From Candidatus Moraniibacteriota bacterium (lineage in GTDB: Bacteria; Patescibacteriota; Minisyncoccia; Moranbacterales; UBA1568), in NCBI GenBank assembly GCA_016699425.1, contig CP064975.1:987957-1051956 (forward strand): a DNA stretch of 64,000 bases, given 5' to 3'. Every line of letters begins with the position of its first letter. Position 1 is the first letter of the stretch. The notes beneath the pieces are model-generated. The model had not been told where the DNA came from. It ran no database searches and was given only the letters and a program-made list of their open reading frames with translations. The position numbers and the translations under genes were made by a program. Positions 3,243-62,150 of this stretch are shown here, piece after piece.

Positions 3243-3246
3243 AATC

Positions 3247-3317
3247 GGAGTGTTGTATAGTGGTATTACGCACGCTTCGGGTGCGTGTGACCCGGGTTCG
3301 ATTCCCGGCACTCCGAC
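3247..3317 (+). tRNA. tRNA-Pro (anticodon CGG)
   Basis: Hand-folded cloverleaf. Acceptor CGGAGTG/CACTCCG with C1:G72 and A73, both bacterial tRNA-Pro identity elements. D-loop AGTGGTA. Anticodon stem CACGC/GCGTG with loop TTCGGGT (U33, CGG, G37). T-arm CCGGG-TTCGATT-CCCGG. No encoded CCA. Confidence 0.85.
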
Positions 3318-3337
3318 AAGAAATGTGACAGGGCAAG

Positions 3338-3398
3338 GGTGCGTGTGACCCGGGTTCCCTGCCTGTCGGCAGACAGGGATTCCCAGCACTCCGACAAT
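3338..3398 (+). repeat. Truncated copy of the 3' two-thirds of tRNA-Pro (anticodon loop to 3' end) with a 20-nt hairpin insertion in the T-loop
   Basis: GGGTGCGTGTGACCCGGGTTC...GATTCCCAGCACTCCGACAA repeats tRNA positions about 34-73. It is interrupted by CCTGCCTGTCGGCAGACAGG (6-bp stem CCTGTC/GACAGG, loop GGCA). One G-to-A change lies in the T-stem. Confidence 0.7.
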
Positions 3399-3545
3399 TG
3401 CTATCTAGCCCAAAAGTGAGGAGCATGTGCCGCTTATAGTCTTCACTGACACATCCATCTGTACCCGAAAAGCTGCTCCCCGCGCTTGACGAGACTGTCA
3501 CGAGAAGACGTACACCCACCCCTGAACGCTATTCTCCATTTGGCT

Positions 3546-3851
3546 ATGAAGCTCCTCATCGAACACCCATCGGACACCACCGTGACACTCTTCCGTCGTG
3601 CTGGCTATATATTCCAACGAGAAGAAGGGACCGAAACTAGCTTCATCCGACCGCTCGGAAGCTCGGGTTATCCGCGCTTCCACTGTTATGTGAAATCCAA
3701 GCCTGACTCTATAGAATGTAGTATTCACCTCGATCAGAAGCGCGAAACGTATGGCCGGACCACGCGGCACCACGGTGAGTACGAGGATGCTGGGGCGCTC
3801 GCTGATGAGATACGGCGCATTCAGCCGCTTCTAGGAGTGCGGGAGAGGTAG
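3546..3851 (+). CDS. Hypothetical small protein (about 101 aa) between tRNA-Pro and tRNA-Leu
   Basis: ORF only. No motif and no clear ribosome-binding site. Sits inside a tRNA-flanked segment. Confidence 0.3.
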   Translation: MKLLIEHPSDTTVTLFRRAGYIFQREEGTETSFIRPLGSSGYPRFHCYVKSKPDSIECSIHLDQKRETYGRTTRHHGEYEDAGALADEIRRIQPLLGVRER

Positions 3852-3924
3852 CGACAGACATTCAAGCAACGGCACTATAGGACACCATACCTGGGCGGAA
3901 GAAGTGTCTAGCAGAAATATATTT

Positions 3925-4008
3925 GCCATGGTGGCGGAATTGGTATACGCGCTAGCCTTAGGAGCTAGTGGGAGTAATCCCTTGAGAGTTCGAGTCTCTC
4001 CCATGGCA
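3925..4008 (+). tRNA. tRNA-Leu (anticodon TAG), type II with long variable arm
   Basis: Acceptor GCCATGG/CCATGGC with A73. 3-bp D-stem. Anticodon stem CTAGC/GCTAG with loop CTTAGGA. Variable arm GGGAGTAATCCC. T-arm GAGAG-TTCGAGT-CTCTC. Confidence 0.85.
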
Positions 4009-4072
4009 CAGTGAAAACGAGAGTGAGGTGGGCTAGCCTTTGACGCTGGATGTCTGGAGAACCTGTGAGTAC

Positions 4073-7040: not shown

Positions 7041-7043
7041 ATT

Positions 7044-7724
7044 TCAGCGAAGGATGAGCACCATGACATCGGTCAGAAACAGGAAAAACCACGATGCGCC
7101 ATAACTGTACCAGAGAGATCGAGACTGATAGGCGATGAGTCCGGCAAACGGAGCAAAAATAAGCGATGGGATGGTCGAGGCGTTGATGTCATCGCTGGCA
7201 TAGAACAGGAAACCGATGAGTGCCGCCTGAACAACGACCGACCAAATCCCCCACCTCCGGAGCCACAATAACATTATAAACCCTCGAAAGAATACCTCAA
7301 AGAGCAGCACGATGAATCCATTCAGGAATACCTCGTACAGAACAAAAAAGAGGAATTGCTCCTGGACTACCACCGGGAGCTGATAGTCTTGGAGAAGCGG
7401 AGTGAAATTCCACAAGACAAATAGTGCAGCTAATGCGGCAATGAGCGCCAAAACACTTCCCCCGATGCCGGCCCAGACATTCCCTTTTTGGAAGCCAAGT
7501 GCTGACAGCGGACGACCGAGCAGTACCTTACAGTACGCGAGCGGCATGATGAGAAAAATACCGATCGCTGCAATGATACTTTGAAGCATCGGACTGATAC
7601 GATCATCCCCGCCGAGAAACCACAGAACGAGTAACGAACCAGTGACGACCGTCATCGTTCCGAGGAATTCCTTGTGCCGAGCAACTACCTGTATCCATCG
7701 TTCCATAAAAACTGGAAAGCTCAA
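7044..7724 (-). CDS. CPBP-family-like polytopic membrane protein (degenerate protease motifs)
   Basis: Multi-TM ORF containing the FEVFFRGF motif (ExxxR-like). Its stop is 3 nt from the start of the next gene. Confidence 0.45.
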   Translation of the reverse strand: MSFPVFMERWIQVVARHKEFLGTMTVVTGSLLVLWFLGGDDRISPMLQSIIAAIGIFLIMPLAYCKVLLGRPLSALGFQKGNVWAGIGGSVLALIAALAALFVLWNFTPLLQDYQLPVVVQEQFLFFVLYEVFLNGFIVLLFEVFFRGFIMLLWLRRWGIWSVVVQAALIGFLFYASDDINASTIPSLIFAPFAGLIAYQSRSLWYSYGASWFFLFLTDVMVLILR

Positions 7725-7894
7725 ACCAAATCAAATTAATTGGTTACCGGATCAAATCCGGGAGAACCTGAATTTCTGCCCTCAAAAAATGACCACGGAG
7801 TCTCGGTGCTGTCGCTCATTCCGTATTAGAATGGTTCATCTTTACTTATTATACACTCTCACAGACGCGCCGATCATCTCATGCTTTTTTTCCT

Positions 7895-8800
7895 TTACGC
7901 TGCCCGGCGCATCACAGCATCGTTAGCAGCCGCACGCTGCCTTCCCCTCTCATAGAGTTTTCCTCCTTCTTTTGACATTTGTCTCCCAGCAGCACGTGCG
8001 ACCTCCTGCTCACCTAATTTTGTAGCTATCATGCCCGCTTTCCCGAGTCTGGTTACTTCTCCCACACCTGTCATATCAGCCGCCATAAACGCCGCTCCTG
8101 TCGCGCCATGCCTCACTCGATCAGTCCCAGAAAGTCTTCTACCATCAAGCCGTTTTCCCGTTACTGACTCACCGACCATCTTTGCCGATCCAACCACCGG
8201 CACCCAATCAGCACCTCTCGAAAGGCGGGTCATTCTCGGGTTTTGTGCGACGTCCCCTTGAGCAGAGAGCGTTTCCGCTTCCGTAGACGCGTCAGCCGAA
8301 GCATTTGAGGAAGCCGTCTCCTGGGCGGCTCTACTCTGAACTAACGCGCGTTGTCGCGCCACGCCACGGAGATCACCCGCCATCTTAGGAGTGGCTCGAT
8401 CGAGTGAGTCTAACACCCCTTTGGATTTATCAGCATCCTTCTTTGCTACATGGTACGCATATAGGACACACACCGTTTGGAACGGGATAAGATTTATAAA
8501 AGGGATGAAGTCGAGCAATGAAAGGAAGAAGACGACTAAACGGACCTTCCATTTCCCTCGCCCCCACATGAAGATGAATAGGTACACTGAAATGAAGAAC
8601 CCGAAGACGAGACCGATGAATGGGATGAAATCAAAGATACCATCTTTGGCAAGTGCAAAAGCCAGCGGCATAAGAAACACGGAGAGGTCTCCCTCTTTGA
8701 CCCTTCTCCGGTGCTCAAGAGCAAGGTGTGTCGCGCTCTTCAACTGCTTCCATTTGCTCTGCTGAAGCTGGTCGAGCTCGAGATCAAAATCCTCATCCAT
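7895..8800 (-). CDS. Hypothetical membrane protein (301 aa), T4SS-cluster associated
   Basis: ORF with two to three hydrophobic segments and a charged Ala/Gly/Arg-rich C-terminal tail. Lies 5 nt downstream of the virB4-like gene. Confidence 0.55.
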   Translation of the reverse strand: MDEDFDLELDQLQQSKWKQLKSATHLALEHRRRVKEGDLSVFLMPLAFALAKDGIFDFIPFIGLVFGFFISVYLFIFMWGRGKWKVRLVVFFLSLLDFIPFINLIPFQTVCVLYAYHVAKKDADKSKGVLDSLDRATPKMAGDLRGVARQRALVQSRAAQETASSNASADASTEAETLSAQGDVAQNPRMTRLSRGADWVPVVGSAKMVGESVTGKRLDGRRLSGTDRVRHGATGAAFMAADMTGVGEVTRLGKAGMIATKLGEQEVARAAGRQMSKEGGKLYERGRQRAAANDAVMRRAA

Positions 8801-8805
8801 AGAAC

Positions 8806-11142
8806 CTAAGGATTGTTGGCGTCAAATTCCCGCTTCGCCTCTTCAATTTCCAGGAGCTGGCGCGGGTCAGAAGTGATGATCTGGTCCTCGCTATATGAAG
8901 CGATAACCTTGATCGCCGCGTGCTTCGTCCCAGCGAAGAAGATTCCTTCGCCGACATTCGACTCGAGCAAGAGGAACTTCTCGTGGTCCGTCAGGTAAAA
9001 CGTCTCCGTGATGAAATCAATGGAAGCCGGCGACTGACGGAGGAGGAGCTGCATGGACGAGTTCGTGATAATCGGCTTGCCGTAGCGCGAAGACATGAAG
9101 TCAGAGATGTCCTGTGTGATCGTCGTGAGGCCCGTGTAGTACTTGCGGCAGCGCTTGGCGATACCAAAAAGGAATGAGGCCGCGTCTTCGTTTTGCATCA
9201 TGATCCACGCTTCATCGACGACAATGAGACGCTGGCGAAGCTTCGAGCGGATATCGTTCCAAATGTACTGAAGGATGATATACATGGCGATCGGCCGAAG
9301 CTCTTCCTCCAGGTCGCGGATATTGAACACCACAAGCTGATTGTTGGTGTCGATATTCGTCTGCTCATTGAGGAACCCCGAAAAAATCCCTTCCGTATAC
9401 CGCTGGAGACGTGCCGCGATCAAATCCGCCCCTTCCATATTCTTCAGGACCGCGTACAAGTCTGACATAGTCGGAAAGGAATTGGCCGTCAGTGACTCGT
9501 AATTCGAATCTTCGTGAATGTCACGAATGGCATAGGCTTCTCGGATCGCCTGATCCAGGATAGAGTCCTCTTCGGCCGACAGAGTGCCGAGCATAAGGTG
9601 AAGGAGACCAATGAGGTTGGCGATAGCGTTCCGGAACACGCCGTCCGACTCATCGTCAGCGCCCACCTTCGGCATATCAAACGGATTGAGGTGGATATCC
9701 GAATTCAGCGAAATCTTCAGGAATGCCCCGCCAACTGTCTCGCAGAGATGCTTGTACTCATTTTCAGGGTCGATGATGATGACGCTCGACTCGAACATGA
9801 GCGCCCGCAAGACTTCAAGCTTCACCGTATAACTCTTTCCAGCACCGGACTTCGCAAACACCACCATATTTGCGTTTTCCATCTTGAACCGGTCAAAGAG
9901 GATGAGCGAGTTGTTATGACGGTTGATGCCATAGAGGATTCCTTCGTTCGAAGAGAGATCGGAGGAAACAAAGGGGAAAGTCGTCGACAAAGGCTCAGTG
10001 TTCAGGTTGTTGGCGACATCCAAGGCATCATTCGCGAGCGGACGCGTCGATGCGAAACCCGCATCCATTCGGAGTACGGCCGGTTTAGTATAGACGAGCT
10101 GCGCCTCGAGCATCGCCTCGACAGACTGTTCTTTCTGTGAGAGATCCTTTTCGTCTGCTCCGTATATCATCATGTACAGTCCGAAACGGAAGAACTTCTC
10201 TGTCCCTTGCTGAAGCCGATCGCGCAGTTCTTCGATGTTCTGAAGGGCTGCCTCGAGCACGGGGTCACGGATTTTCCCTTCTTCGACTTCGATATTCATC
10301 TGCGACTGCACCTGGGTTGCTGATTTCCGGAGCTGTTTCAGGATCTCGGCCGTCTCGATCGGATGGATGAAGAGCGCCGTGTCCATCGGAAAGTCGAGAT
10401 TGATGATCGGGGAAAACCAATTGGTCGAGAGGAAACGTGGATACGCGATGACAAACAGCGCGCGTGCAACGACATCGCCGATTTGCATCGACGCCGGAGT
10501 GACCCGGATAGCCGGCGGAGCGATCAGGTCCTTGATTGTCGCCAGGCCCTTCTGGTACAACTGCTCCGTATCCAGTCCTTCATCCAGCTCCAGAATCCGT
10601 GGATTATTCTTGAAGAGTTTGCTGAAAATACCGGCTTTTTCTGACTGTGCACGCACAACACGTTCTTCGGGCGCAACATGTGACACGACTTCTTTGGCCC
10701 AGACCTCACGGTTTGCCTGTGGCTGAAGCAAGGCCTCATAGTCAGGCACCGCGACGGCCTCTCGCATCGGGGCCTCCCGGACGGGGGGGTCAGGCACGAT
10801 GTACGGTTCGAGCTCGGGTACAGCCACTGGCGGTGTGACCGGATCGGCCTCGACTATCACCAATGGTTCCACCTTCGGTCGTGGTTTCGGCGTCGGCTTT
10901 GGTTTCGGTCTTGCCTTCGGTAACGGTTTTGGTTGCGGCTCGGTAACCGTAACAGACGCTTTCGGTTGGCGGACCGGCGCGGCGACCACCTCTACTGGAG
11001 GCACTGGAGACGTCTTTACCACCGGCGCTGGCCGCGATGGCGGAACCGGAGCCTGGCCTGATCCAGGCGTCGTGATATTCATGGGATCTACCACGGATAC
11101 CTTCCTGATTGGCCGGTCAAAAATGATGAGTTCTCGTGCCAT
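8806..11142 (-). CDS. virB4: VirB4/TrbE-family type IV secretion ATPase (778 aa) with a roughly 150-aa Pro-rich N-terminal extension
   Basis: Walker A VFAKSGAGKSYT and Walker B RLIVVDEAWIMM. The middle region (AIRVTPASMQIGD...YPRFLSTNWFSPIINLDFPMDTALFIHP) is typical of Gram-positive-type VirB4 proteins. Confidence 0.85.
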   Translation of the reverse strand: MARELIIFDRPIRKVSVVDPMNITTPGSGQAPVPPSRPAPVVKTSPVPPVEVVAAPVRQPKASVTVTEPQPKPLPKARPKPKPTPKPRPKVEPLVIVEADPVTPPVAVPELEPYIVPDPPVREAPMREAVAVPDYEALLQPQANREVWAKEVVSHVAPEERVVRAQSEKAGIFSKLFKNNPRILELDEGLDTEQLYQKGLATIKDLIAPPAIRVTPASMQIGDVVARALFVIAYPRFLSTNWFSPIINLDFPMDTALFIHPIETAEILKQLRKSATQVQSQMNIEVEEGKIRDPVLEAALQNIEELRDRLQQGTEKFFRFGLYMMIYGADEKDLSQKEQSVEAMLEAQLVYTKPAVLRMDAGFASTRPLANDALDVANNLNTEPLSTTFPFVSSDLSSNEGILYGINRHNNSLILFDRFKMENANMVVFAKSGAGKSYTVKLEVLRALMFESSVIIIDPENEYKHLCETVGGAFLKISLNSDIHLNPFDMPKVGADDESDGVFRNAIANLIGLLHLMLGTLSAEEDSILDQAIREAYAIRDIHEDSNYESLTANSFPTMSDLYAVLKNMEGADLIAARLQRYTEGIFSGFLNEQTNIDTNNQLVVFNIRDLEEELRPIAMYIILQYIWNDIRSKLRQRLIVVDEAWIMMQNEDAASFLFGIAKRCRKYYTGLTTITQDISDFMSSRYGKPIITNSSMQLLLRQSPASIDFITETFYLTDHEKFLLLESNVGEGIFFAGTKHAAIKVIASYSEDQIITSDPRQLLEIEEAKREFDANNP

Positions 11143-11144
11143 AC

Positions 11145-11822
11145 CTATGACTGAAGCTCAATGGCCTCGATATTCTTCACGATCGTTGAGGCAAAAAGCG
11201 ATGGGTTATAGCTGTTGTAGAGTAGTTCGATAAGCTCCTCCGTCTCGAGAACCGCCGCCCGGACACCCATCGGAGAGAGTCCTGCCACCACGTGCTCGAC
11301 GCGCTGCATGAGCTGGGTCCGGTAGGTGTAGAAGAGCTCCGTCTTCAAGCCGACCGTCTTTTTTTGATTGAAGATATCGCCCATCTTCTGAAAAAATCCG
11401 CCCTGGCTGTTCTCGACCGGTGAAAACGGCACCACGACATAGAAGAATTTCGACATGATGTTCGATATCTCCGTCAAATTCTTGATGAAACCTTGATACT
11501 CCCGCATTTGGAAACGCAAAAGCTCATTCATTTGCTGAGCTTCTTTCCCCTTGAGGAGTTCGATATACGGATCGATATTGAAACGCCGCGATTGCACCAC
11601 GATCTGCACAGGAAAATCGAGCGAGTTCAAAAAATTCTGGTATTGGGAGATGATCGCATCTTGTTCCTCGCTTGATTTCAAATCAAAATTGATGGATGAA
11701 ACAAGAAGCACCGCTCGAAGTGCCCCGGTCTTGAGGACGAGCACACCATCGCGAATTTCTTCGACATCGACATAGCGCTGTGTGCTAGCACTCCCTGACT
11801 TTTTCTTCGAAAGAAGTTCCAT
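11145..11822 (-). CDS. VirB4 N-terminal-domain-like protein (225 aa), encoded separately from the ATPase
   Basis: DGVLVLKTGALRAVLLVSSINFDLKSSEEQDAIISQYQNFLNSLDFPVQIVVQSRR matches the conserved start of conjugative VirB4-like ATPases. TAG stop 2 nt before the ATG of 8806..11142. Confidence 0.6.
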   Translation of the reverse strand: MELLSKKKSGSASTQRYVDVEEIRDGVLVLKTGALRAVLLVSSINFDLKSSEEQDAIISQYQNFLNSLDFPVQIVVQSRRFNIDPYIELLKGKEAQQMNELLRFQMREYQGFIKNLTEISNIMSKFFYVVVPFSPVENSQGGFFQKMGDIFNQKKTVGLKTELFYTYRTQLMQRVEHVVAGLSPMGVRAAVLETEELIELLYNSYNPSLFASTIVKNIEAIELQS

Positions 11823-11831
11823 AGATCGAGA

Positions 11832-12224
11832 CTAGTGGCTATCCATGATATTGGCGAGACGACGAAGCTCTTCGGAGGTAATACGTTTTTCCTTGGGTGC
11901 CTCCACGACGCGAGCTGTTTCAACAGGTGCCTGACGGATCCGCGCCGTCGGTCGCTCCCAGACAGCGATTTTGGGACGGAACAAGAATGAAAATCCGTGG
12001 AAGAGAAACACAATGAGCGGTACCCCTTGAGGCCGATAGAAGGCCAGGGCAACAAAGAGGAGAATGAGCGGTATGCCGATGACGAAGAATCCCGTGGTAC
12101 CGATAGTGTTGTAGAGCACGAGGAGGGTGATCATCATGCCGATCATCCACAAGAGCTGCCGCCAGGTCAACGGACCAGCGATCTTGTCCTCGACATCGAT
12201 GAATTGCGGGACACTGAACATCAT
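11832..12224 (-). CDS. PrgI/VirB3-like small membrane protein (130 aa)
   Basis: N-terminus FSVPQFIDVEDKIAGPLTWRQLLWMIGMMITLL followed by two TM helices, as in PrgI-family proteins found upstream of VirB4 in Gram-positive T4SS. Confidence 0.65.
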   Translation of the reverse strand: MMFSVPQFIDVEDKIAGPLTWRQLLWMIGMMITLLVLYNTIGTTGFFVIGIPLILLFVALAFYRPQGVPLIVFLFHGFSFLFRPKIAVWERPTARIRQAPVETARVVEAPKEKRITSEELRRLANIMDSH

Positions 12225-12294
12225 AACGCTTTTGTATTCGAGGATAGCCTGCTTTCCATTTCTGCCAACATGAAAAGAAGTCTCCGCCTCTTTA

Positions 12295-12332
12295 GTATAT
12301 CACTACACTAATGCATCGGTGTAGTGATATAC
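12295..12332. promoter_or_regulatory. Perfect 14-bp inverted repeat GTATATCACTACAC-n10-GTGTAGTGATATAC upstream of the prgI-like gene
   Basis: Seen directly. The spacer TAATGCATCG contains an ATGCAT palindrome. A related half-site AGTATACCACTACA occurs at 16187-16200, upstream of the virB6-like gene. Confidence 0.45.
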
Positions 12333-12348
12333 AATAGCTGTACGAGAT

Positions 12349-13818
12349 TTATATGTCTCCGTTCCCACCATTCCTCGCACGAAGCGGACGGATAGAGTAG
12401 GGACTTTTCGAAAGCGAGGCTTTCGGTTCACGCCGGATTCCCTGAGTCGGCTGTTGCATCTGGCGGAGCGCCTCATTTACGCCTGTTGGGGCCGTATCAA
12501 CTTCACGTTCCGCGGGCAGCACATGGCCGGTGGAGAAATGCAGAGTCTCGCCAGAGACATTTTTTTCTGGCGCCGCTGATTTTCCAAAGAGGGGTTTGAA
12601 TGTCGGTGCCGGTTGAGACTTCACAGCTAACGGGACGGTCGGGGTGGTCGGTTGGATATTCGGTGCTGCCACGGCCGGATTCGCCGGCAACCCGCGAGGG
12701 CGGATAGTTCGGTTCATCGGCTGAGTCTTCACTTGAGCCAATTCCATCGATGCATCATCGGTCCGCGGGAAGATAATCGTCTCATGGGTCGTATCGATCT
12801 CCAATGGGAAATCCTCCTCGACTGATTTCAGAATGAGATTGAGCCGCGCCCGGTCGTCATTGGAGAGGCGTTTGCAATTCACGGACTGGAAGAGGAAATT
12901 CCCCCGCTGAGCGGTCTCATGGAAGCCGATACCAATTTCCTCGCGATAGCTCCGCAGCCAATTGCCCAAGGACGGCCGCACCGGTTCCATCGACGTCTTT
13001 AGTTTGATCTTCTCATTCGTCAGCAATTGCTCCGACAGATGCCGATACTCACTCATCGCCTTGAGCAGCGGTAATCGGATCGTTTTTTGGGCGGGTGCTT
13101 GTTGGCGACCAGTACCTGCAGAAACTCCCTTCTGTTGAGAGTTACTCATAGATGAATACTTTGCTCTGAACTCATTTGGGTTTACTTCTCTTACCCCTTT
13201 CTGCTCAAGTTCAGATAGTTTCTCATACACTCCAGCGACATCATAGACTGTAGTAATGGGACGTGCAAACCATTGGTCATACACGCGTAATACTTCACGA
13301 AGTACCCCTTGCTGATTCTTACTCATAGAGACGATCTCCGGAACACGGGTAAAGAACATGTTCACTGCAGTCCCTTCGCGCTCCATCGATGGGAAGTCTT
13401 TATCGAATTTCTGGACCCAGTCGCGGACCGTTCTTTGTCCAATTTTTTGTTCATTGTGTAATAGAGCATCCCGAAAAGCATTTCGATCCCCTTCCTGATT
13501 ACCATAACCCAAGTACAGAAACCGGCTCTTGATCACCTCATCGATATCCACTTCACTCGTCAACAGATCAACAAATTGTCTTTCAATGATTGCCACTGCC
13601 TGATCTACCGGAAGACTTGGGAAAGCAATGAACAAGAGAGGGTCCTTCATCTGTGTCAACATCTCCTTCGATGATGCAGGTGCCTGTCCTGCCATCACGT
13701 CCCACTGACGCCAAGCGGAATATGCCAAGTTGTCATCATGTCGGGCGCACGCCTCTGAGACCTTCGCGGACCATTGTTTGAAGTCTGTTGGCGGGGTAGT
13801 TGGTGAACTCACAGTCAT
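12349..13818 (-). CDS. Hypothetical protein (489 aa), T4SS-cluster associated
   Basis: Long ORF within the operon. No TM segment and no known motif. Pro/Thr-rich C-terminus. Confidence 0.6.
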   Translation of the reverse strand: MTVSSPTTPPTDFKQWSAKVSEACARHDDNLAYSAWRQWDVMAGQAPASSKEMLTQMKDPLLFIAFPSLPVDQAVAIIERQFVDLLTSEVDIDEVIKSRFLYLGYGNQEGDRNAFRDALLHNEQKIGQRTVRDWVQKFDKDFPSMEREGTAVNMFFTRVPEIVSMSKNQQGVLREVLRVYDQWFARPITTVYDVAGVYEKLSELEQKGVREVNPNEFRAKYSSMSNSQQKGVSAGTGRQQAPAQKTIRLPLLKAMSEYRHLSEQLLTNEKIKLKTSMEPVRPSLGNWLRSYREEIGIGFHETAQRGNFLFQSVNCKRLSNDDRARLNLILKSVEEDFPLEIDTTHETIIFPRTDDASMELAQVKTQPMNRTIRPRGLPANPAVAAPNIQPTTPTVPLAVKSQPAPTFKPLFGKSAAPEKNVSGETLHFSTGHVLPAEREVDTAPTGVNEALRQMQQPTQGIRREPKASLSKSPYSIRPLRARNGGNGDI

Positions 13819-13882
13819 AACATGGGGACTATATTAAACGTTATGTGCAAGACGGGGGGGTACAATACTGTTCATTCGTTAA

Positions 13883-16144
13883 TTATATGAGTCGTGTGGG
13901 CATCGTGTGTCCAGATGGCAGTGTCGGTTTAACAGTTTTCTCAACGTACTCTCGGAACATTGGGTTTGTGTTATACGCGGCCTTAAAGTTCCTATAGTTT
14001 CCACTCGTGGCAGTATTCACTGCCCCCTCATAGGCATCCAGGATCGCACTCTGGACTACTGCATTCGTTCGAGATGCGCTACCCACATCATTATTATTTA
14101 TTTCCATAGCAACTGCTAATCCAGACGCATGCATATCACCATATTTTCGATTGCCTGAAGCTGGGTCAACAACCTGTGTAAAGAGACCCCGGGCATGCAG
14201 GACATCCTGCCGTGTTTGCGCTTTCATTTTCTTGAAATTCCCCGCAACAGTCCCGGCATGGTCAGATGTGCCTGTCCAGGTTCCCGTTGCAACATCTGGT
14301 TCATAGAAGTCCCCAAAAGCAATATCCCCTTTCATCTTCGCATTTTCACCGAAGTTATGCATGTGTTTCATAATTGCCTGTTCGTCCACGCCCACATCCT
14401 CCAGAATTTTTTTCATGGTGTCCTTATAGCTCTCAGTGATATCGACCAATCCGGTGACCGGATCAATACTTGCCGTACCCAACTCATGCGCGAAATCCGC
14501 TGCAACGTTATCCAGACCATTTATCCGAGACAGGAGCGTACTCGCTGCCAGCACTTTTGCTGAATTACGTTCCTCATAACCCTCTTTAAGCGCTCGTCGT
14601 ACTACATTTTCATTAACCTCCCCTCCTCCCTGTTCCTTGATCTCTGCTTCATAATGAGCTTTTTGTTTATTCTGCTCCAAGAACGCATAGTTGGTTGAAT
14701 CCGCGTGTGTAAACTTATTAACAATTGGGATGCTACTAAATGCTTTATTTAATTCATCGTGCATCCGCGCCTTTGCCATATCGATAGGAAGTTGGTCCTC
14801 ATGATGCTGAGCCTCACTACGCTGCTTGAAGGCGGATTTCAACACGGTCGGGCTCAAGTACTTCACCCATTTTTTATCAGATGCAGCGAGCTTCGTCTCA
14901 ATCTTCCTCCCAGCATATTTGGCCGTCCCAGCTGCGCCCTTCCCCACCAATCTCACTGGTGCCATCGCTGCGCCCTGCACCTTCTTCCGTGCCCAATGCG
15001 CCGCCCCATAGCCCATACCGACGACAGCTGCCGAGCCGGCGATGGCGAATTTGTTGGCCAGGCCGATGGTCGCCCAGATGAGAATGATCGGGATCGTATA
15101 GAAAATCACATTGGTGATGAGTGTCGATCCACTAGCGCTGACACTGGCATTGGTCGACACCTGGTCCACTGATCGCCAGACATTGGCCGTCTGGGTCGCC
15201 TCGAGAAATTTCAGCGAGACCACGAGCATGAGCGCGGCCGCCGGACCGAAAAAAGCATAGCTCCAGAACTTACTCCACCATTCCTGTCCGTATTTGTTGA
15301 ATCCTGGCAAGAGCGACCCCGCGAAGCCGATCGGCGAAAAAACGAGGAGGAGGGTGAGTGCGATGAGCCGAACGATGAGCATGACCGAGAGCACCGCGAG
15401 CGAAATACCGAAAAGGAAGGCGAAGATGATCGCTGCAAACGTCGGGATATAATCCGTCGTCAGTGCCGCCGCCGCCGTACCCGAAAACCCGAGCAGGTTG
15501 TTCATCGCGATCACCGCCCCCTGGCCACCCCCCGCACCGATGACGTCATTTATGAAGTAGTACATCGGCACATTGGCCACATCGATGAGAAAGCGCGTGA
15601 TAGGAAAACTGAAATTGATGAGGAGCGCCGTGAGGAGGATGTTCTTGAAGATATTACGGATATTGAAGCTATCTACCTGGAAGATGGTCGCGAAGGCCGA
15701 AAAGAGCAGAATGAAAATGAAGAACAAATTGAAGAAGTCCCGGATAAATTGCCAGAGCGTATAGACGGCGGGGAAATTCAGGATGCCGTTTGGACCAGAG
15801 ACATTGGCCGGATTGACCACCCAGACGAAAAGCGCAGCGGCCGGGGAAGCAATGATGAGGATGATCGCACTGCGAATCAGATTGAGTAACCACAGTGAAA
15901 AGTCCTTCAAACATCCGGTGATATTGCCTATATTGCATCCAGTGGACACATCTCCAGTGGCTATCCCTTGGCCTTCTTTCACACCCGCGTTAGTCGCCCC
16001 ACCCACCGTCGCAGCCTCGACCGGGGTCTGGATAGTCTGATTCGCATGCACCGATGCCGCACAACCAAGAACGCCTTGGAAGACGAGCACGGAAAGGAAT
16101 AGACTCGCAAAAATTTTCTGTGTGTTTTTCTTCACCCCACGCAT
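13883..16144 (-). CDS. VirB6/TrbL-like polytopic membrane protein (about 753 aa from the internal ATG; the ORF extends to a GTG at 16195)
   Basis: Signal peptide MRGVKKNTQKIFASLFLSVLVFQGVLGCAASVHA, then six or more TM helices rich in aromatic and Gly residues, then a long soluble C-terminal domain. Position and topology match VirB6-like subunits. Confidence 0.6.
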   Translation of the reverse strand: MRGVKKNTQKIFASLFLSVLVFQGVLGCAASVHANQTIQTPVEAATVGGATNAGVKEGQGIATGDVSTGCNIGNITGCLKDFSLWLLNLIRSAIILIIASPAAALFVWVVNPANVSGPNGILNFPAVYTLWQFIRDFFNLFFIFILLFSAFATIFQVDSFNIRNIFKNILLTALLINFSFPITRFLIDVANVPMYYFINDVIGAGGGQGAVIAMNNLLGFSGTAAAALTTDYIPTFAAIIFAFLFGISLAVLSVMLIVRLIALTLLLVFSPIGFAGSLLPGFNKYGQEWWSKFWSYAFFGPAAALMLVVSLKFLEATQTANVWRSVDQVSTNASVSASGSTLITNVIFYTIPIILIWATIGLANKFAIAGSAAVVGMGYGAAHWARKKVQGAAMAPVRLVGKGAAGTAKYAGRKIETKLAASDKKWVKYLSPTVLKSAFKQRSEAQHHEDQLPIDMAKARMHDELNKAFSSIPIVNKFTHADSTNYAFLEQNKQKAHYEAEIKEQGGGEVNENVVRRALKEGYEERNSAKVLAASTLLSRINGLDNVAADFAHELGTASIDPVTGLVDITESYKDTMKKILEDVGVDEQAIMKHMHNFGENAKMKGDIAFGDFYEPDVATGTWTGTSDHAGTVAGNFKKMKAQTRQDVLHARGLFTQVVDPASGNRKYGDMHASGLAVAMEINNNDVGSASRTNAVVQSAILDAYEGAVNTATSGNYRNFKAAYNTNPMFREYVEKTVKPTLPSGHTMPTRLI

Positions 16145-16241
16145 AGGTATGCCAAGAGTATGAACAGCTACCGAGATACAAAAATAGTATACCACTACAA
16201 AGGAACTAGTAACTAGTAGTTAGTCGCTGCACCCTCATTTT

Positions 16242-17549
16242 CTAATAAATGTATCCCTTGATCACGCGGCTCGAGCGCGACAATTGCCGCACGCTTTTCT
16301 TCGCCCAGCCGGTGTAGTTCATCTCGGACACGGTGATGGTATCACCGCTCACCTTTTCCACGACCGCGACATGGCCATAGTAGCGGTTTTCAGTCGTCAC
16401 GACGATCGAGCCGACGGTCGGATTCTTGCCGGTCTTGTAGCCATAGGCCCGAGCATTGAAGAGCCAGGTGCCCGCATTGCCGCCCCAGGGGACATAGCGT
16501 TTCTGCGCGACGAACCAGGTGCAGTACCCATACGGGAAGCGATGTCCCTGGCCAATTTTCCCTTCTTTGGGTCGTGAGAAATTCGGGGTGATGTCGGTCG
16601 CTGCCCCCACGCCGGACTGGGTCGCGTATTCCCGGCGAGCCAACCCGGTCGAGGTCGGCGCGGTCAAAGTTGCCTCCTTCACCCCGTCCGGGATGACGAT
16701 TTCCTCACCGGAAGTCAGTTCGCCATTGGCGGGCAAGCCATTGTAGGCGATAATACGGCTCCGGTCCGCTTTGTACTTGGTCGCGATCGTGTCGATCGTG
16801 TCGCCTTGTTTCACCAGATAGTTGAACCCCGCCACTGGCAAGATGAAGATCTGATCGCCGGGCTTGATCGCATCGACATTGTCCAGATCGTTCGCCCAGA
16901 GGATGGTATTGACCGTCACCCCGTTGGCCGAGGCAATGCCCGATACCGTGTCACCCGCCGCCACGGTATAGATCTTTACGCCCCCTTCTTCCTCTGGGTC
17001 CCGTGTGCTGTTCGCACCGATCGCGCCTGCGAGAAACATTTGGTTTTCCGGCGAGAGATAGGCTTCATCGAGTACATTCGTCTCTGACTTGGCCGCGACA
17101 TCGACCGCCAGCGGGGGTGCCGCGAGGGAGACGAGCGAGAGGTTATGCTGTTTGGATTCTTGCGCCGCGCGCCGCGGGATGAGGCGACTTTCGCGAGGCA
17201 GATCAATCCCGAGTGACGTCATAAGACGATCGAGCCGGCCCGCTTCTTGGCCGTAATTGGTCGCCGAAACGAGCATGGCCGAGGAAACGACGATAGAAAA
17301 AGCAGCATATTTACGGAAAAGCGCCACTGGAACATAGCCGGACCTTTCCTTGAACCAAATCAAGAGTTTGGTCTGCCACTGATGGAAAATGGTATTCCAA
17401 TGCGAGAAATCAGCCCAAGCACGCGCTTTTTTCCAGACTAGTCTGACGAAAGATGTAAGGTTCGAGTAGATACGCTCGCCCTTTCTGTCGGGAATATCCC
17501 CTAGCGACGCTGGCCGATAAGCGGGCGCCACATCCGGGATTTCCCCCAA
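16242..17549 (-). CDS. Membrane-anchored peptidoglycan hydrolase with two LysM domains and a C-terminal CHAP domain (functional VirB1 analogue)
   Basis: LysM repeats (YTVAAGDTVSGIASANGVTVNTILWAN; YLVKQGDTIDTIATKYKADRSRIIAYN). CHAP motifs YGYCTWFV and GHVAVVEKV. First gene of the T4SS operon. Confidence 0.8.
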   Translation of the reverse strand: MGEIPDVAPAYRPASLGDIPDRKGERIYSNLTSFVRLVWKKARAWADFSHWNTIFHQWQTKLLIWFKERSGYVPVALFRKYAAFSIVVSSAMLVSATNYGQEAGRLDRLMTSLGIDLPRESRLIPRRAAQESKQHNLSLVSLAAPPLAVDVAAKSETNVLDEAYLSPENQMFLAGAIGANSTRDPEEEGGVKIYTVAAGDTVSGIASANGVTVNTILWANDLDNVDAIKPGDQIFILPVAGFNYLVKQGDTIDTIATKYKADRSRIIAYNGLPANGELTSGEEIVIPDGVKEATLTAPTSTGLARREYATQSGVGAATDITPNFSRPKEGKIGQGHRFPYGYCTWFVAQKRYVPWGGNAGTWLFNARAYGYKTGKNPTVGSIVVTTENRYYGHVAVVEKVSGDTITVSEMNYTGWAKKSVRQLSRSSRVIKGYIY

Positions 17550-17659
17550 GAGTTACGCCTCGTAGAATACTCTGAAACCCTCCCCTGGTCAATTGATTTT
17601 CGGGTGAATATTGTATCTTTTGCTTCAATTGAGCCTTTTTCCTGTCAGGCTCCCTAAGT

Positions 17660-18691
17660 ATGACCCCGTTCTCGCGGGCCTTCCCATGGTACAATTTTCA
17701 TGTCGCCTTATATCATACGCTTGTGCCCCCATTTGAGAACCCCAAGACCGAAATTGAGCGGCTCGCCAAGGAATTCTGTGAACACCTCGAGATCGAGATG
17801 AATCGCTCCCGGCGGACCCTCGAGAGCTATGCCCACACTCTTTCCACCTTCTTCGCGTGGGGCGCGATTGCGACACCCGCGGACCTGACGCTCGAGAAAA
17901 TCCGAGCCTATCGCCTCTACCTCAATCGGAAACAGACACGGCGCGGCACCACGCTCAAGCGAAGCACCCAAGCCTACCACGCGATTGTTCTACGCACCTT
18001 CCTGAAGCATCTGGCAAAAAACGATATTCCCACCCTCGCGGCTGAAAAGATTGAGGTTGGCCGGGTCCCGGAACGTCAGGTCGACTTCCTCGAGTACGAC
18101 GAGGTGGAGCGGCTTTTGGCAGCCCCCACGGGCGACGGTATTCGGGTACGGCGGGATCGTGCCCTCCTCGAGCTCCTCTTTTCCGCTGGTCTCCGCGTCT
18201 CTGAATTGACGGGACTCGATCGGGACCAGGTCAATCTCGCCAAGGAGGAATTCAGTGTCCGTGGCAAAGGATCGAAACTCCGCATTGTCTTCCTCTCGCC
18301 CCGAGCGATAACGGCTATTGCTGACTATCTCGACCACCGAAGCGACATCGATCCTGCGCTCTTTGTCTCACATCCGAAAAAAGGACTCGTGAATAAAAAA
18401 AATGCGACACGCGAGACGCTCCGCCTCACGCCCCGCACCGTCGAACGACTGGTGAAGCACTACGCGAAAAAAGCCGGCATCGTGAAAGACGTCCATCCGC
18501 ATACCCTCCGTCACAGCTTCGCCACCGACCTCCTCCGGAACGGGGCCGATATCCGAAGCGTCCAGGCGATGCTCGGCCACGCCTCCATCACCACGACACA
18601 GATCTACACCCACGTCACCAACGAACGGCTGAAGGAAGTTCACCAATCCTTCCATGGGAAACGAAAGCCGAAGATACTAGATAAGCGATAG
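17660..18691 (+). CDS. Tyrosine recombinase/integrase (XerC/XerD family)
   Basis: C-terminal catalytic region LRHSFATDLLRNGADIRSVQAMLGHASITTTQIYTHV carries the R-H-R-Y signature, and an N-terminal core-binding domain is present. Transcribed divergently from the T4SS operon. Confidence 0.85.
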   Translation: MTPFSRAFPWYNFHVALYHTLVPPFENPKTEIERLAKEFCEHLEIEMNRSRRTLESYAHTLSTFFAWGAIATPADLTLEKIRAYRLYLNRKQTRRGTTLKRSTQAYHAIVLRTFLKHLAKNDIPTLAAEKIEVGRVPERQVDFLEYDEVERLLAAPTGDGIRVRRDRALLELLFSAGLRVSELTGLDRDQVNLAKEEFSVRGKGSKLRIVFLSPRAITAIADYLDHRSDIDPALFVSHPKKGLVNKKNATRETLRLTPRTVERLVKHYAKKAGIVKDVHPHTLRHSFATDLLRNGADIRSVQAMLGHASITTTQIYTHVTNERLKEVHQSFHGKRKPKILDKR

Positions 18692-50952: not shown

Positions 50953-52029
50953 TTATGGGTCCGGATCAGGAGTTGAATTAAAATTCACGAGCGATTGCTG
51001 GACGCCCGTATATTTTCCAGCACTCGATGCACTCCCGCTCCACCCACCCAGCTGTTGATTCGAATTGCGCATAAATTGCGATCCCGGACCAAGCTGCCGT
51101 TGAAGGTCAGTTCGTGCTTCGTTAATCTTTGAATCTACCTTTCCCAGTTCTCGACTGATGTTCTGAGAAACCATTTCGAAGCCCTTTTGGTACATGTTAT
51201 TGAGCGCCTGATTAGCAAAGGCTCCAGCCGCAGCAGCAATTAATTCACCCCATTCAGTTGAATTTCCCACCAGTTTGAGAACTTCTGTTTGAGTTGTCTC
51301 AGTGACACCGGCAATAATGGACCCGGGTGATACAGTTTTCCCATTGATCTCCACCCCGGTAAAGCCCTTTCCGGCAATCGCCTTCGTCTTGGCGATTTCC
51401 TGCTGTTGATTGATTTTCTTCTGTGTTTCTTCCTTGATCATGAGACTCATTCCGAGCGGGTTATTGCAATCCACTGAAACCACAGCATTCAGTACCCGCC
51501 AGTCCCCTTCTCCGAGCGAGACCATCGCATTTGGCGTGTACTGATCAAGATTGAATTTGCAGCGGTCAGCAGCAAAGGCCGCGTTCACCTCAGCATTCAT
51601 GTAGTTCAAATAGCTCATGCCTAGCTGTTGCAGGCTGCCCCCCGCCACGACATAGTTGAGTGCAGAACTCTTTCCATCCGTTACCGTCGTAAGAAGATCG
51701 TTCATGTATATCATTCCTTCATCCAAAGCAATACCATAGATATATTCCTTGTAATCTGTAATAAAGGCTGCCTTTTTGGACGACCCGCCCGAAACGAGCT
51801 TATTCGCTGTATCGCGCGCCAGTCCAATTGCTACACGCTTGGCAATACCTTTAAGCAGGGCCAACAATTGCTCCCTTAGTGTTGTAATTGCCTGACCTAA
51901 TAGTTCAGCAGGAATTGCATCCCATGCATATGCAGGACGCGGCATAACACTTACAAAAACAACCACAGGTATCATTATTGATACGATTACTTTCCTTGAC
52001 CGATAGTAATGATTCATGGACGACAGCAT
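50953..52029 (-). CDS. Secreted hypothetical protein (358 aa)
   Basis: N-terminal signal/TM segment. Lower GC than the genome average. Confidence 0.55.
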   Translation of the reverse strand: MLSSMNHYYRSRKVIVSIMIPVVVFVSVMPRPAYAWDAIPAELLGQAITTLREQLLALLKGIAKRVAIGLARDTANKLVSGGSSKKAAFITDYKEYIYGIALDEGMIYMNDLLTTVTDGKSSALNYVVAGGSLQQLGMSYLNYMNAEVNAAFAADRCKFNLDQYTPNAMVSLGEGDWRVLNAVVSVDCNNPLGMSLMIKEETQKKINQQQEIAKTKAIAGKGFTGVEINGKTVSPGSIIAGVTETTQTEVLKLVGNSTEWGELIAAAAGAFANQALNNMYQKGFEMVSQNISRELGKVDSKINEARTDLQRQLGPGSQFMRNSNQQLGGWSGSASSAGKYTGVQQSLVNFNSTPDPDP

Positions 52030-52040
52030 ATACCTCTCCC

Positions 52041-53021
52041 CTATAAATCAAGTGATAACCCTTGGATGCCGTACTGGCTAAGCTTAGTCTGTGTTTCCTG
52101 CATAAAGCCCTGCAGAGAAACAACCACCCCAATAATTTTTGAAAATGCCATCATCTGTGCCAACGGGTCCTCGGGCGTCACAGAGCCCTGAATGCTCTGC
52201 TTTATATTCGAAATATAAGAAAGTAATTTAACAGCCTTCATATGCGTATCAACCATGCTTTCCGGAACATCTAGCTGATTGATCTCTTCAAGCGCATTCT
52301 TCGCTCGTCTTTCTGACTCATCGAGAAAACTAAAGTCTCCCGAAACCAGACTCGTCAGCATTGTATTGCTCGAGGTTGTGATGAAGTTTTGCAATTGCGC
52401 CTCATTCCGTACAGGAGTAGGGAGATTTGAAAGGAGGATATATGCTGAGAGAGTAAGATACTGAACCGTATCCTCTCTATTCTGCTCTTTCTCTTCTTCG
52501 TCAGTTAAGTTGTCAGAAAGTTTCTTAATTTTCAAAAACGAACTATCAATCTCAGGCAATACCACTTCTTCCTGACTCGTTGCCATCACATTATTGATAA
52601 CGGTGGAAAAGTCCTCGTTTGTAATTTCAGAACTATTTCCTTTCTCTTCGAGGAGAGCAGCAAATTCATTAGTAGCTTTTGTAGTAAGATTAGGCGTTTG
52701 TGTATCCGATACACCAACCGCCTCAATGGCTTCCTCCGGTATAACTCGGTCTCCAGGCGCTGGTTTCAGTGGATCAAACCCTCCTTCAATTTCGACACCA
52801 TCACTATACCCATCCCCATCTGTATCTGCGACATTCGGATCGGTTCCATAAATTTTCTCTTCTTCATTTGACAAACCATCTGTATCAACATCATCAAAAA
52901 CAACTGTATCAGTTGTTGATACTTCATCCGCCGCGACATACAACGCTGAACTCACGAGACACAAAAAAGCAAACACTAAAATACTCCAGCGAAGATTGGT
53001 TTTTGTTTGTGATACACCCAT
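52041..53021 (-). CDS. Secreted protein with calcium-binding thrombospondin-type-3-like Asp-rich repeats
   Basis: Signal peptide, then DDVDTDGLSNEEEKIYGTDPNVADTDGDGYSDGVEIEGGFDP. Confidence 0.6.
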   Translation of the reverse strand: MGVSQTKTNLRWSILVFAFLCLVSSALYVAADEVSTTDTVVFDDVDTDGLSNEEEKIYGTDPNVADTDGDGYSDGVEIEGGFDPLKPAPGDRVIPEEAIEAVGVSDTQTPNLTTKATNEFAALLEEKGNSSEITNEDFSTVINNVMATSQEEVVLPEIDSSFLKIKKLSDNLTDEEEKEQNREDTVQYLTLSAYILLSNLPTPVRNEAQLQNFITTSSNTMLTSLVSGDFSFLDESERRAKNALEEINQLDVPESMVDTHMKAVKLLSYISNIKQSIQGSVTPEDPLAQMMAFSKIIGVVVSLQGFMQETQTKLSQYGIQGLSLDL

Positions 53022-53413: not shown

Positions 53414-54751
53414 TTATGAATTTATAGATTCAGAATTGTTCAAAGCTACATTATGACTAACTATATTACATTTGTCAATAGTATAAATACTCCATGCTAA
53501 CATTGCTGCTATAAATGATCCTTGGTATATGTCCCAGGCATAGTGGTCAATTGACAATATAAGTATAAGGAAAATTGTAGGTATTTGAATATTATTCCAT
53601 GTTTCACGTGGAACTTTTCGAAAATATTTTCGTAAAATCATTAAAAGGAGAATTGTTGGTAAGATACCAAGCTCACTAAGAACAATAAATGGTACAAAAT
53701 GTATTGGTTCGTAATTCCACCATTCCAGAGGCATGTTGTCATAACTCAATCGGTAGGTACCGATTCCAGAGCCAAACAATGTTGGAGCATAATTTCCTAC
53801 TTGACTTATAGCCTGACTCAATCTGGTCTTAGTAGATACGGATATATCTATATACGATAGAAGTGTAAATGCCACAATCGAAGCAAGTAAAACTGTAGTG
53901 ACTATCACATGTTTCACGTGGAACATAGAAATAAGTTTTTTTTTGTACATGAACAGTATCATGAGCATAAGAAATATAATCATGAGTTTTGATTGAGTCA
54001 ACAATATTGACATGGTAGTAAATAGGACTATGGGATACAGAAATAGATGTTTCACGTGGAACAAATATCGGCGAAATAAGTATATAAAAATGAGTACAAA
54101 CATAGCATAGACTGCGAAAACATTAGGATGAGGAAATGTACCGTAACCACGTAATACTAGATGTCCAAATATATGTGCTTTCGCAACATTCAATGCACCA
54201 AGCGACAGAATTGATTCATTTAATGCTTTGACTCCAATAGATGATCCATGTATAACCTGGTAACCCGAGATAAACAACTGGAATAATGTACTGAAGGAAA
54301 ATATATATACAAGATCTATAATAAATTTCGTTCCACGTGAAACAAATTGATTTTGTATTAATACTATCGCTCCAAAAATAAGTGAAAAATGTAGCGCGCT
54401 ACTAATTGAGAGTCGTACATCAATTGAGGCAAAAATATTCATGGTTAAAAATATCAACAATAGTATCCATAAAATATTACGTTCCACGTGGAACTCATTT
54501 TTTACCTGATTAATAATAGATGTAACTATTGACTTTTCTTCTCTTTTCTTGTTTATAATGTGTATAAGAAGTGCAATAGCGAGAATAATCTCTCCAATAT
54601 ATATAGATATATCCATATATTCGCTGAAAGCCGCATGAAATCCACTCCGACTAGGATCAAGTATGATACGCCAAGAAAACGGAATTTGCCCGATATAGGC
54701 ATAAACCAATACTTGCTCAATATCTTTGAGTGAAACCGGGATAGTTTTCAT
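53414..54751 (-). CDS. O-antigen ligase/polymerase-like polytopic membrane protein (445 aa), about 33% GC, with five in-frame copies of a 14-bp palindrome
   Basis: Ten or more TM helices and a large periplasmic-type loop, similar in architecture to the Wzy_C/O-antigen ligase family. Strongly AT-rich relative to its flanks. Confidence 0.55.
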   Translation of the reverse strand: MKTIPVSLKDIEQVLVYAYIGQIPFSWRIILDPSRSGFHAAFSEYMDISIYIGEIILAIALLIHIINKKREEKSIVTSIINQVKNEFHVERNILWILLLIFLTMNIFASIDVRLSISSALHFSLIFGAIVLIQNQFVSRGTKFIIDLVYIFSFSTLFQLFISGYQVIHGSSIGVKALNESILSLGALNVAKAHIFGHLVLRGYGTFPHPNVFAVYAMFVLIFIYLFRRYLFHVKHLFLYPIVLFTTMSILLTQSKLMIIFLMLMILFMYKKKLISMFHVKHVIVTTVLLASIVAFTLLSYIDISVSTKTRLSQAISQVGNYAPTLFGSGIGTYRLSYDNMPLEWWNYEPIHFVPFIVLSELGILPTILLLMILRKYFRKVPRETWNNIQIPTIFLILILSIDHYAWDIYQGSFIAAMLAWSIYTIDKCNIVSHNVALNNSESINS

Positions 54752-61511: not shown

Positions 61512-62150
61512 TTAGGTCTCTCGGTCCGTCTTCCGCCACTCGGGAACAGAGCCAATTTTCTTTTCGATCTCAGATGCCACGCGGAGAGAACGTTCGTTCA
61601 TGGGCGGAACGAGCCGGTAGTGCCGCGACAGATCCAATGCTTCGGCGATGTCGATGAGGCTGCCCTCGCTCGTCACCCACTCCGTTCCGAAACGCTTCAG
61701 ATTGAATGGTCGTGAATATTCGCGCAACGTCTTCCGTCCGGTCGTCGTCAGATAGTATTCGTGGAAATAGGAGAGGGCCAGCTCACGCACCGTCCGGTAG
61801 ATCGGATCGCGGTACCGCAAGACGCCATGATTCGTTTTGGATAGCGCGCCCCAGTAACCGTTCCGCCGGAAAAGTGTCACCACGTGATCGAAGTCATAAC
61901 GGAGTGACCGCAGATCGAGGATGAAGGGCTCTGCTCCGTGATACCAGAGTGCGAGTGCCGCTAGGCAAGCCGCCTCGATGCAGTGCGCCTTGCCCTCGCG
62001 CAGTATCACCCGCGGTGAGTAAAATGTCGGCCCCGCCTTTTCAAAATTGAAGGGGAGGGTATCGAGATAATCCTGGATCTTCGCTGGGGTCGAGAGCCGC
62101 CGGAAAAACGCTTCTTCTTTTCTCGTCAGCCCGAAAATATTTTTTTGCAT
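61512..62150 (-). CDS. Hypothetical protein (212 aa), possible transglutaminase-like cysteine protease fold
   Basis: GKAHCIEAACLAALALWYHG motif. Otherwise unassigned. Confidence 0.45.
   Translation of the reverse strand: MQKNIFGLTRKEEAFFRRLSTPAKIQDYLDTLPFNFEKAGPTFYSPRVILREGKAHCIEAACLAALALWYHGAEPFILDLRSLRYDFDHVVTLFRRNGYWGALSKTNHGVLRYRDPIYRTVRELALSYFHEYYLTTTGRKTLREYSRPFNLKRFGTEWVTSEGSLIDIAEALDLSRHYRLVPPMNERSLRVASEIEKKIGSVPEWRKTDRET

Follow-up and report, generated by a model that had tools for sequence, protein, structure and literature searches.

A candidate chromosomal parS array embedded in an O-antigen-ligase-like gene of a Candidatus Moraniibacteriota bacterium

We analysed a 64-kb stretch of DNA, referred to throughout as the window, from the ~1.2 Mb genome of a Candidatus Moraniibacteriota bacterium (Candidate Phyla Radiation (CPR)/Patescibacteria), and in particular five short palindromes that lie within a single minus-strand open reading frame (ORF) encoding a predicted O-antigen-ligase-like (Wzy-like) membrane protein. 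As judged from their sequence, the five palindromes are very probably canonical chromosomal parS sites, which together would form an array for ParB loading (a centromere) inside the ORF. The arrangement is ancestral to a clade of Moraniibacteriota and is encountered again in Wzy-like genes from other classes of the CPR.

Five palindromes in one open reading frame

A search of the window for GTTYCACGTGRAAC returned exactly five matches, at 53601, 53911, 54049, 54330 and 54481, against an expected count of 0.00 from 100 dinucleotide-preserving shuffles. All five fall within the ORF, and the array spans ~0.9 kb. The other 62.7 kb of the window contains no additional site at up to two mismatches to the 16-bp pan-bacterial parS consensus TGTTNCACGTGNAACA. 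An initial annotation of this DNA had reported the same five copies, with that at 54330 in inverse orientation and that at 54481 a perfect palindrome, in a gene of 33% GC; all of this was recovered, the gene having 32.9% GC against 50.6% in its flanks and about 51–52% in the genome, and the motif was absent from the remainder of the window. The annotation had also assigned all copies to one codon phase encoding FHV(E/K). Only three of the five conform (53911 and 54049, FHVK; 54481, FHVE). A one-base offset puts the other two in a second phase, in which the copy at 53601 is translated as VPRET and that at 54330 as VSRGT. The gene and the 16-bp candidate sites are as follows.

53414..54751, minus strand: host gene, encoding a 445-aa polytopic membrane protein with ~12 transmembrane (TM) helices, Wzy_C/O-antigen-ligase-like superfamily (predicted)
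54480..54495: parS site 1, plus strand CGTTCCACGTGGAACT, gene strand AGTTCCACGTGGAACG; 14-bp core a perfect palindrome, mismatches confined to outer positions 1 and 16; peptide E-F-H-V-E-R, residues 86-91, K/R-rich TM2-TM3 loop
54329..54344: parS site 2, plus strand CGTTCCACGTGAAACA, gene strand TGTTTCACGTGGAACG; one outer mismatch; peptide F-V-S-R-G-T, residues 136-141, TM4/TM5 junction, in a frame different from that of site 1
54048..54063: parS site 3, plus strand TGTTTCACGTGGAACA, gene strand TGTTCCACGTGAAACA; no mismatches; peptide L-F-H-V-K-H, residues 230-235, TM6-TM7 loop
53910..53925: parS site 4, plus strand TGTTTCACGTGGAACA, gene strand TGTTCCACGTGAAACA; exact consensus; peptide M-F-H-V-K-H, residues 276-281, TM8-TM9 loop
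53600..53615: parS site 5, plus strand TGTTTCACGTGGAACT, gene strand AGTTCCACGTGAAACA; one outer mismatch; peptide K-V-P-R-E-T, residues 379-384, TM10-TM11 loop, in the second frame

Compared with TGTTNCACGTGNAACA the sites carry 0, 0, 1, 1 and 2 mismatches, at the outermost positions only. On the gene strand the sites at 53910 and 54048 read TGTTCCACGTGAAACA; they are identical to B. subtilis parS, in the form of the one parS that lies within the B. subtilis parB gene itself (PMC4333373). The CACGTG core is important for binding by P. aeruginosa ParB, which still binds sites with one or two mismatches, although with lower affinity (PMC4368675).

A scan of a genome collection gave 80 related loci, ranked by similarity, a ranking that may slightly favour parS-bearing genes. 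Thirteen of these (L001-L013) are syntenic orthologues, giving 14 genes with that of the window. The label “uncultured Bdellovibrionales” attached to L002, L004-L006, L010, L011 and L013 looks like a taxonomic mislabel in one TPA assembly series; by synteny and by housekeeping proteins that are 75–95% identical these loci are clearly Moraniibacteriota. The commonest form at the orthologous sites, and that of most of them, is TGTTCCACGTGGAACA, the perfect palindrome of P. aeruginosa parS2 and parS3 which is best bound by ParB (PMC4368675). A position table and logo were built from 76 orthologous sites. Conservation reaches at least 99% at positions 2-4, 6-11 and 13-15; T at position 1 and A at position 16 are found in 88%, and positions 5 and 12 are limited to Y and R. 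At positions 0 and 17 conservation collapses to the AT-rich background; the conserved unit is exactly 16 bp, not the 14 bp initially described. The suggestion made at that stage of a binding site for a nucleoid protein pointed in the right direction, but the identity with parS had been missed.

Purifying selection on the DNA and the nature of the host protein

The order of genes in L001-L013 is S1, Gmk, TilS, FtsH, two hypothetical genes, a TSP3-repeat protein, the Wzy-like gene, RbfA, DHH and UDG, collinear and without inversions in all 13. In the nearer loci the neighbouring proteins are mostly 75–95% identical to their window counterparts; the Wzy-like proteins share only 28–56% mutual identity. 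Every orthologue has five to seven parS sites, each one inside the gene, and the five positions seen in the window (residues ~88, 139, 232, 278 and 382) carry parS in all 14 genes. Together the genes span 18.9 kb and contain 76 sites, compared with one weak two-mismatch site in 265 kb of flanks. Mean pairwise nucleotide identity among the 14 genes is 0.90 in the parS columns and 0.49 elsewhere; for third codon positions the values are 0.91 and 0.375. When 16-nt windows are ranked by conservation over the entire gene, parS sites take the first four places, above the protein motifs of the family, and the highest is site 4 (mean pairwise identity 0.948).

Codon usage agrees with this. Histidine is encoded by CAC at 45/45 positions inside the sites but at 37/121 outside (p=3e-18), arginine by CGT at 26/26 and 26/151 (p=5e-17), and phenylalanine by TTC at 44/46 and 127/500, respectively; the choice of codon inside the sites thus opposes the AT bias of the gene. 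The reading frame is not fixed. Most orthologues have V(S/P)RGT at position 139-141, and in L010, L011 and L013 the site is read in the third frame as CSTWN. The window thus uses two frames and the orthologues together three. The site-to-elsewhere contrast in identity, the third positions, the fixed codons and the change of frame in three orthologues show that strong purifying selection acts on the DNA itself, in whatever frame the sites fall. The initial annotation had argued, partly from a single phase, that nucleotide conservation exceeds what the peptides require and that a DNA-level function follows; that conclusion stands, and having two phases in the window and three across the orthologues makes the case stronger than the original argument.

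Could the peptides themselves be the conserved element, with FHVxH or VPRET forming functional turns and the similarity in DNA a by-product? Peptides of these types are indeed conserved in 30/30 aligned homologues. One DNA word read in three frames, however, gives unrelated peptides at homologous positions, and synonymous codons are fixed against the strong AT bias, third positions being 91% identical. The amino-acid alternations seen in the family are E/K, P/S, E/G, H/Q after the motif and L/M/V before it, which are those generated by the degenerate or outer positions of parS; of these, E/K, P/S and E/G are chemically radical yet tolerated as parS degeneracy predicts. Nor do homologues arrive at the same peptides from different nucleotides; they encode them with the same ones. 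A protein-level repeat is effectively refuted by the frame changes and codon statistics, and we consider functional peptide motifs highly improbable.

Hairpins in the mRNA, acting in transcription attenuation, as RNase cleavage sites or as translational pauses that aid membrane insertion, are a second alternative. Each site could form a 6-bp stem and every site follows a TM helix. The perfect palindrome at 54481-54494, with the T-rich run that follows it, was also flagged as terminator-like on both strands in a consensus scan, which is probably incidental. The 76 sites show neither covariation nor compensatory changes; it is the sequence rather than the pairing that is conserved, and loop bases are invariant. 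Moreover, 18/76 sites are TGTTCCACGTGAAACA, with a C·A mismatch at positions 5 and 12, and non-coding arrays contain these sites as well (see below). The hairpin explanation was rejected on the lack of covariation and on these 18 non-pairing sites, and we give it very little credence.

It is similarly hard to credit that the copies are mobile or recombinogenic palindromes, whether in-frame insertions resembling repetitive extragenic palindromic (REP) sequences, miniature inverted-repeat transposable elements (MITEs) or Rickettsia palindromic elements (RPEs), or shufflon-type recombinase sites. A tyrosine recombinase gene is present in the window (17660-18691), and the Rickettsia elements establish that palindromic insertions in frame can be tolerated. 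Similarity between copies stops, however, at exactly 16 bp, with no shared flanks and no target duplications; no further copy is present in the 64 kb and, apart from the one weak site, none in the 265 kb of flanks; the sites keep orthologous positions and collinear order, without inversions, in the 13 orthologues; and the recombinase is 35 kb away. A mobile element or duplication was rejected on the absence of flank similarity and of other copies and on the fixed positions across orthologues. The remaining alternative, a restriction-modification target or DNA-uptake signal, has in its favour that CACGTG is recognised in type II restriction; the enzyme Eco72I has been used to score parS mutants (PMC4368675). 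Signals of this kind are genome-wide or avoided; restriction to a single gene, with fixed positions and conservation over 16 bp, does not fit them, and this possibility too appears extremely unlikely. The data thus reject the restriction-modification, DNA-uptake, recombination-hotspot and palindromic-insertion options that had first been offered.

The host gene is real, since 30 aligned homologues of its product have 42 invariant columns and conserved loop motifs (WQIPFSWR, RGYGTFPHPN, GSGIGTYRLSYD..WWNYEPxHF and DHYxWDIYQG), and a ribosome-binding site, GGAGGG, is found 7 nt upstream of the ATG. No Pfam match to the protein was obtained, even at E<=1, the PF04932 model included. Remote homologues found at E 1e-15 to 1e-4 in a phmmer-type search do carry PF04932, and a profile-profile comparison of 30 family members with 25 PF04932-annotated CPR proteins gave 100% probability (E 9.7e-60, 403 columns), with the motifs RxYGTFPHPN and DHY common to both profiles. 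The description “O-antigen-ligase-like”, already used in the initial annotation, is acceptable as a superfamily assignment by remote homology, with the function a prediction; what fails is a direct Pfam match, absent at E=1.

An AlphaFold2 model of the protein (predicted local distance difference test (pLDDT) 83.5, predicted template-modelling score (pTM) 0.86) has ~12 TM helices and places all five sites at helix-helix junctions (residues 86-88, 140, 231-234, 276-278 and 379-381). The site-bearing loops are even-numbered, short and bordered by runs of K/R (NKKRE, FRRY, YKKK, LRKYFRK), and alternate with the long loops that carry the family motifs. By the positive-inside rule, the parS sites would therefore occupy those loops of the TM2-TM11 region that face the cytoplasm. 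In two of its three reading frames parS is translated into a basic, polar peptide of a kind suited to cytoplasmic loops, which offers a straightforward explanation for the capacity of a polytopic membrane protein to accommodate many of them. Tolerance in the loops of a membrane protein had been proposed at the outset for small palindromic insertions; the loop placement is supported by the model, the insertions are not.

Low GC is found in all 13 orthologues (27–38%, compared with 44–52% in their flanks). The AT-richness has therefore been maintained in this syntenic gene, and recent horizontal transfer as its source is rejected. Low GC is also typical of enterobacterial wzy genes. We note that two secreted-looking genes, encoding the TSP3-repeat protein (52041-53021) and a 358-aa protein without a Pfam match (50953-52029), adjoin the Wzy-like gene in 12/12 orthologous loci in which the downstream flank is covered; their GC is reduced and, like the Wzy-like gene, they evolve faster than the housekeeping neighbours (30–86% identical, compared with 83–95% for FtsH).

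ParB, the origin and other CPR lineages

Positional orthologues were also found in L042 and L059, where FtsH is ~74% identical and the Wzy-like protein only 23–24%. In both, sites persist in the same loops but are read in other frames (CFTWN, VPHGT, FHVEQ and VSRGT). Wzy-like ORFs labelled Doudnabacteria, Paceibacterota and Saccharibacteria, among others, have three to seven sites each, at positions some of which recur and some of which are lineage-specific. Over the whole sample, parS clusters lie in or by a Wzy-like gene in about 30/80 loci, and in L033, L036, L049 and L069 the sites run on into the downstream DNA. In L045, a Paceibacterota metagenome-assembled genome, eight parS-like sites TGTTTNACGTGAAACA spaced 35–93 bp apart form a non-coding array (11825-12281) immediately downstream of the Wzy-like gene, with dnaA 8 kb further on. 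A search for remnant Wzy-like coding sequence beneath this array found none.

As a less biased sample, metagenomes were scanned for any two parS sites 120–150 bp apart, giving 120 loci. Most arrays in this sample are intergenic. The low-GC loci with at least seven sites in one long ORF are only L148 (7), L166 (11) and L198 (11), all Wzy-like (E 1e-98 to 1e-118) and with no parB nearby; in L166 (2298-4550) and L198 (10714-12966) the ORFs are 751 aa long, each with 11 parS. L108 also has at least seven sites, within a 347-codon open frame that crosses a 1-kb contig of 64% GC and is probably a spurious ORF. A further protein, P0056 (594 aa, PF04932), contains 14 parS-type peptides. Very dense arrays were also observed in the metagenome contigs L097 (1044-2012, 15 sites in 1 kb), L122 (1306-2157, 14 in 0.85 kb) and L150 (1234-9401, 17 in 8 kb); these do not lie in Wzy-like genes.

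Several points weigh against assigning the array as a centromere. At their outermost positions, three of the five sites in the window depart from the consensus. Neither ParB nor ParA was detected in the window, or within ~10 kb of the gene in the 80 related loci, using tblastn with Spo0J/Soj sequences and a ParB hidden Markov model, whereas about 45/120 of the dense metagenome clusters do have parB in the same short locus. A database search with a consensus ParB returned non-CPR proteins only, with no CPR-labelled match. We therefore infer, rather than observe, both a cognate ParB in this genome that binds the sites and a location of the array near the replication origin. With regard to the latter, the window has no dnaA, no cluster of DnaA boxes and no GC-skew switch, the skew being negative throughout and flattening toward the right end. 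This places oriC beyond the window, probably on its right-hand side.

The lack of parB near the array leads to the most serious alternative, that the reader is another DNA-binding protein, either a ParB paralogue (a membrane tether like Noc or a regulator like KorB) or a transcription factor controlling or silencing the Wzy-like gene, and that the array is regulatory. That all sites lie in a single gene, possibly the regulated target, would fit, and drifted specificity could be read from the variant palindromes with CATATG or CACATG cores in L019 (10786, 11086), L043 (11023) and L020 (10807). These variants, TGTTTCATATGAAACA or TGTTTCACATGAAACA, stand beside one canonical parS, and may reflect either decay or a shifted ParB specificity in the lineage. 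Most copies, on the other hand, match canonical chromosomal parS at all 14 specified positions; no other reader of the parS sequence is known, and to invoke one is unparsimonious given the exact identity. The sites of L045 and L069 also extend beyond the gene as non-coding arrays, as expected of a centromere and unlike an operator. We regard a different reader as improbable, and the assignment to ParB loading as by far the better founded.

Wzy-like genes 3–5 kb from dnaA and without parS were observed in ten loci of other CPR lineages (L038, L046, L048, L052, L058, L062, L073, L075, L076 and L077). The gene family seems to be origin-linked in parts of the CPR even without embedded sites. An alternative repeated motif was sought in the Wzy-like loci that lack parS and none was found.

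Elsewhere in the window, a block of large minus-strand genes (4155-18691) includes several large ORFs without a Pfam match and, ahead of the tyrosine recombinase, the following two.

8806-11142, minus strand: TraG/VirB4-like P-loop ATPase
16242-17549, minus strand: LysM+CHAP cell-wall hydrolase

The block could represent an element of conjugative or integrative type, or else a type IV secretion-like apparatus of the CPR; tRNA-Pro and tRNA-Leu are located at 3246-4009. An ORF of 212 aa (61512-62150, minus strand) has no Pfam match at E<=1e-3 but is strongly conserved, being 78–90% identical in orthologous loci.

Known systems, possible mechanism and significance

The parS/ParB (Spo0J) systems of B. 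subtilis, P. aeruginosa and C. glutamicum use the same 16-bp TGTTNCACGTGNAACA with its CACGTG core, in several copies per chromosome. A single intragenic parS is ordinary and dense parS arrays are common: besides the site in B. subtilis parB, nine of ten P. aeruginosa parS are intragenic (PMC4368675), and in C. glutamicum ten parS are found in 35 kb, nine of them intergenic (PMC7083940). In these three species the sites are distributed over several genes or intergenic regions across 16–35 kb or more, usually near parAB and oriC. The array described here differs in having five to seven sites (up to 11 in relatives) in one ORF, one per predicted cytoplasmic loop, with positions kept while the protein falls below 30% identity and with no parB within ~10 kb. 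The metagenome arrays of L097, L122 and L150 likewise contain many closely spaced canonical parS, up to 15–17, but are intergenic or in short spurious ORFs, whereas the Wzy-like array overlies functional coding sequence.

Signals overlaid on coding sequence are also known from the uptake sequences of Neisseria and Haemophilus, which are genome-wide and of high copy number, and from the Rickettsia palindromic elements, which are mobile in-frame insertions of 100–150 bp. In both, as here, a DNA element shapes the peptide and is tolerated at permissive positions; the present array differs in being a predicted protein-binding array at a single locus, with orthologous positions and no mobility. Another comparison is with Noc, a ParB paralogue that tethers DNA to the membrane and whose binding sites (NBS) are 16-bp palindromes of the ATTTCCCGGGAAAT type, dispersed but absent from the terminus region. 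A 16-bp palindrome, a link to the membrane and, as predicted here, a reader of the ParB family are common features. The NBS sequence differs, however, and contact with the membrane is made through the amphipathic helix of Noc itself and not through the product of the site-bearing gene.

What is unusual is that an entire array is overlaid on a single fast-evolving ORF, each of the predicted cytoplasmic loops receiving one site, that its positions are conserved and its frames are not, that it is found in the same superfamily across CPR classes and that it is unlinked to parB. Full-text literature searches found no description of a parS array embedded in one ORF; it appears that this canonical element has not been described before in such a conserved architecture.

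ParB dimers are reported to recognise parS, bind cytidine triphosphate (CTP), close to clamps and slide onto flanking DNA (PMC8367383), and the ParB-parS partition complex is reported to mark the chromosome for segregation and to load SMC (PMC4333373, PMC7083940). If the Wzy-like array operates in the same manner, ParB dimers would bind each of the five sites via their helix-turn-helix domains, bind CTP, close into clamps and slide to neighbouring DNA. The resulting partition complex would be used by ParA and/or SMC for chromosome segregation and organisation, with five loading sites in 0.9 kb providing a strong single nucleation zone. The encoded peptides, (L/M)FHV(E/K)(H/Q), V(P/S)R(E/G)T and C(S/F)TWN, are tolerated in the protein's short, K/R-rich and by prediction cytoplasmic loops.

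More tentatively, the coupling of centromere and gene may be functional rather than a frozen accident; we think this possible, although the balance is against it. In one version, transertion of the Wzy-like protein, that is co-transcriptional translation and membrane insertion, would tether the ParB-parS complex to the membrane, replacing in these tiny cells the polar anchor proteins of other bacteria. In a second, occupancy by ParB would gate expression of the surface-glycan enzyme, so that envelope synthesis would be tied to replication and segregation. Either, if true, would explain why the array is kept in or beside one gene family across several CPR classes, as well as the unlinked parB and the conserved low GC of the gene.

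From sequence alone, the analysis points to the probable site of the chromosomal centromere in an uncultured CPR lineage. It also presents a case of co-evolution, within a single piece of DNA, of a coding sequence and a multi-site array predicted to bind protein: the DNA signal is retained in any frame, and the identity of the surrounding protein drops below 30%. For annotation, a simple rule emerges: FHV(E/K)(H/Q), V(P/S)R(E/G)T and C(S/F)TWN in Wzy-like proteins of the CPR should be taken as read-through of parS and not as catalytic motifs. The sites could in addition act as handles for ParB-based labelling of CPR chromosomes. The recurrent link between a parS array and a membrane protein, with parB unlinked, raises the question of how chromosomes are positioned and segregated in these ultra-small bacteria.

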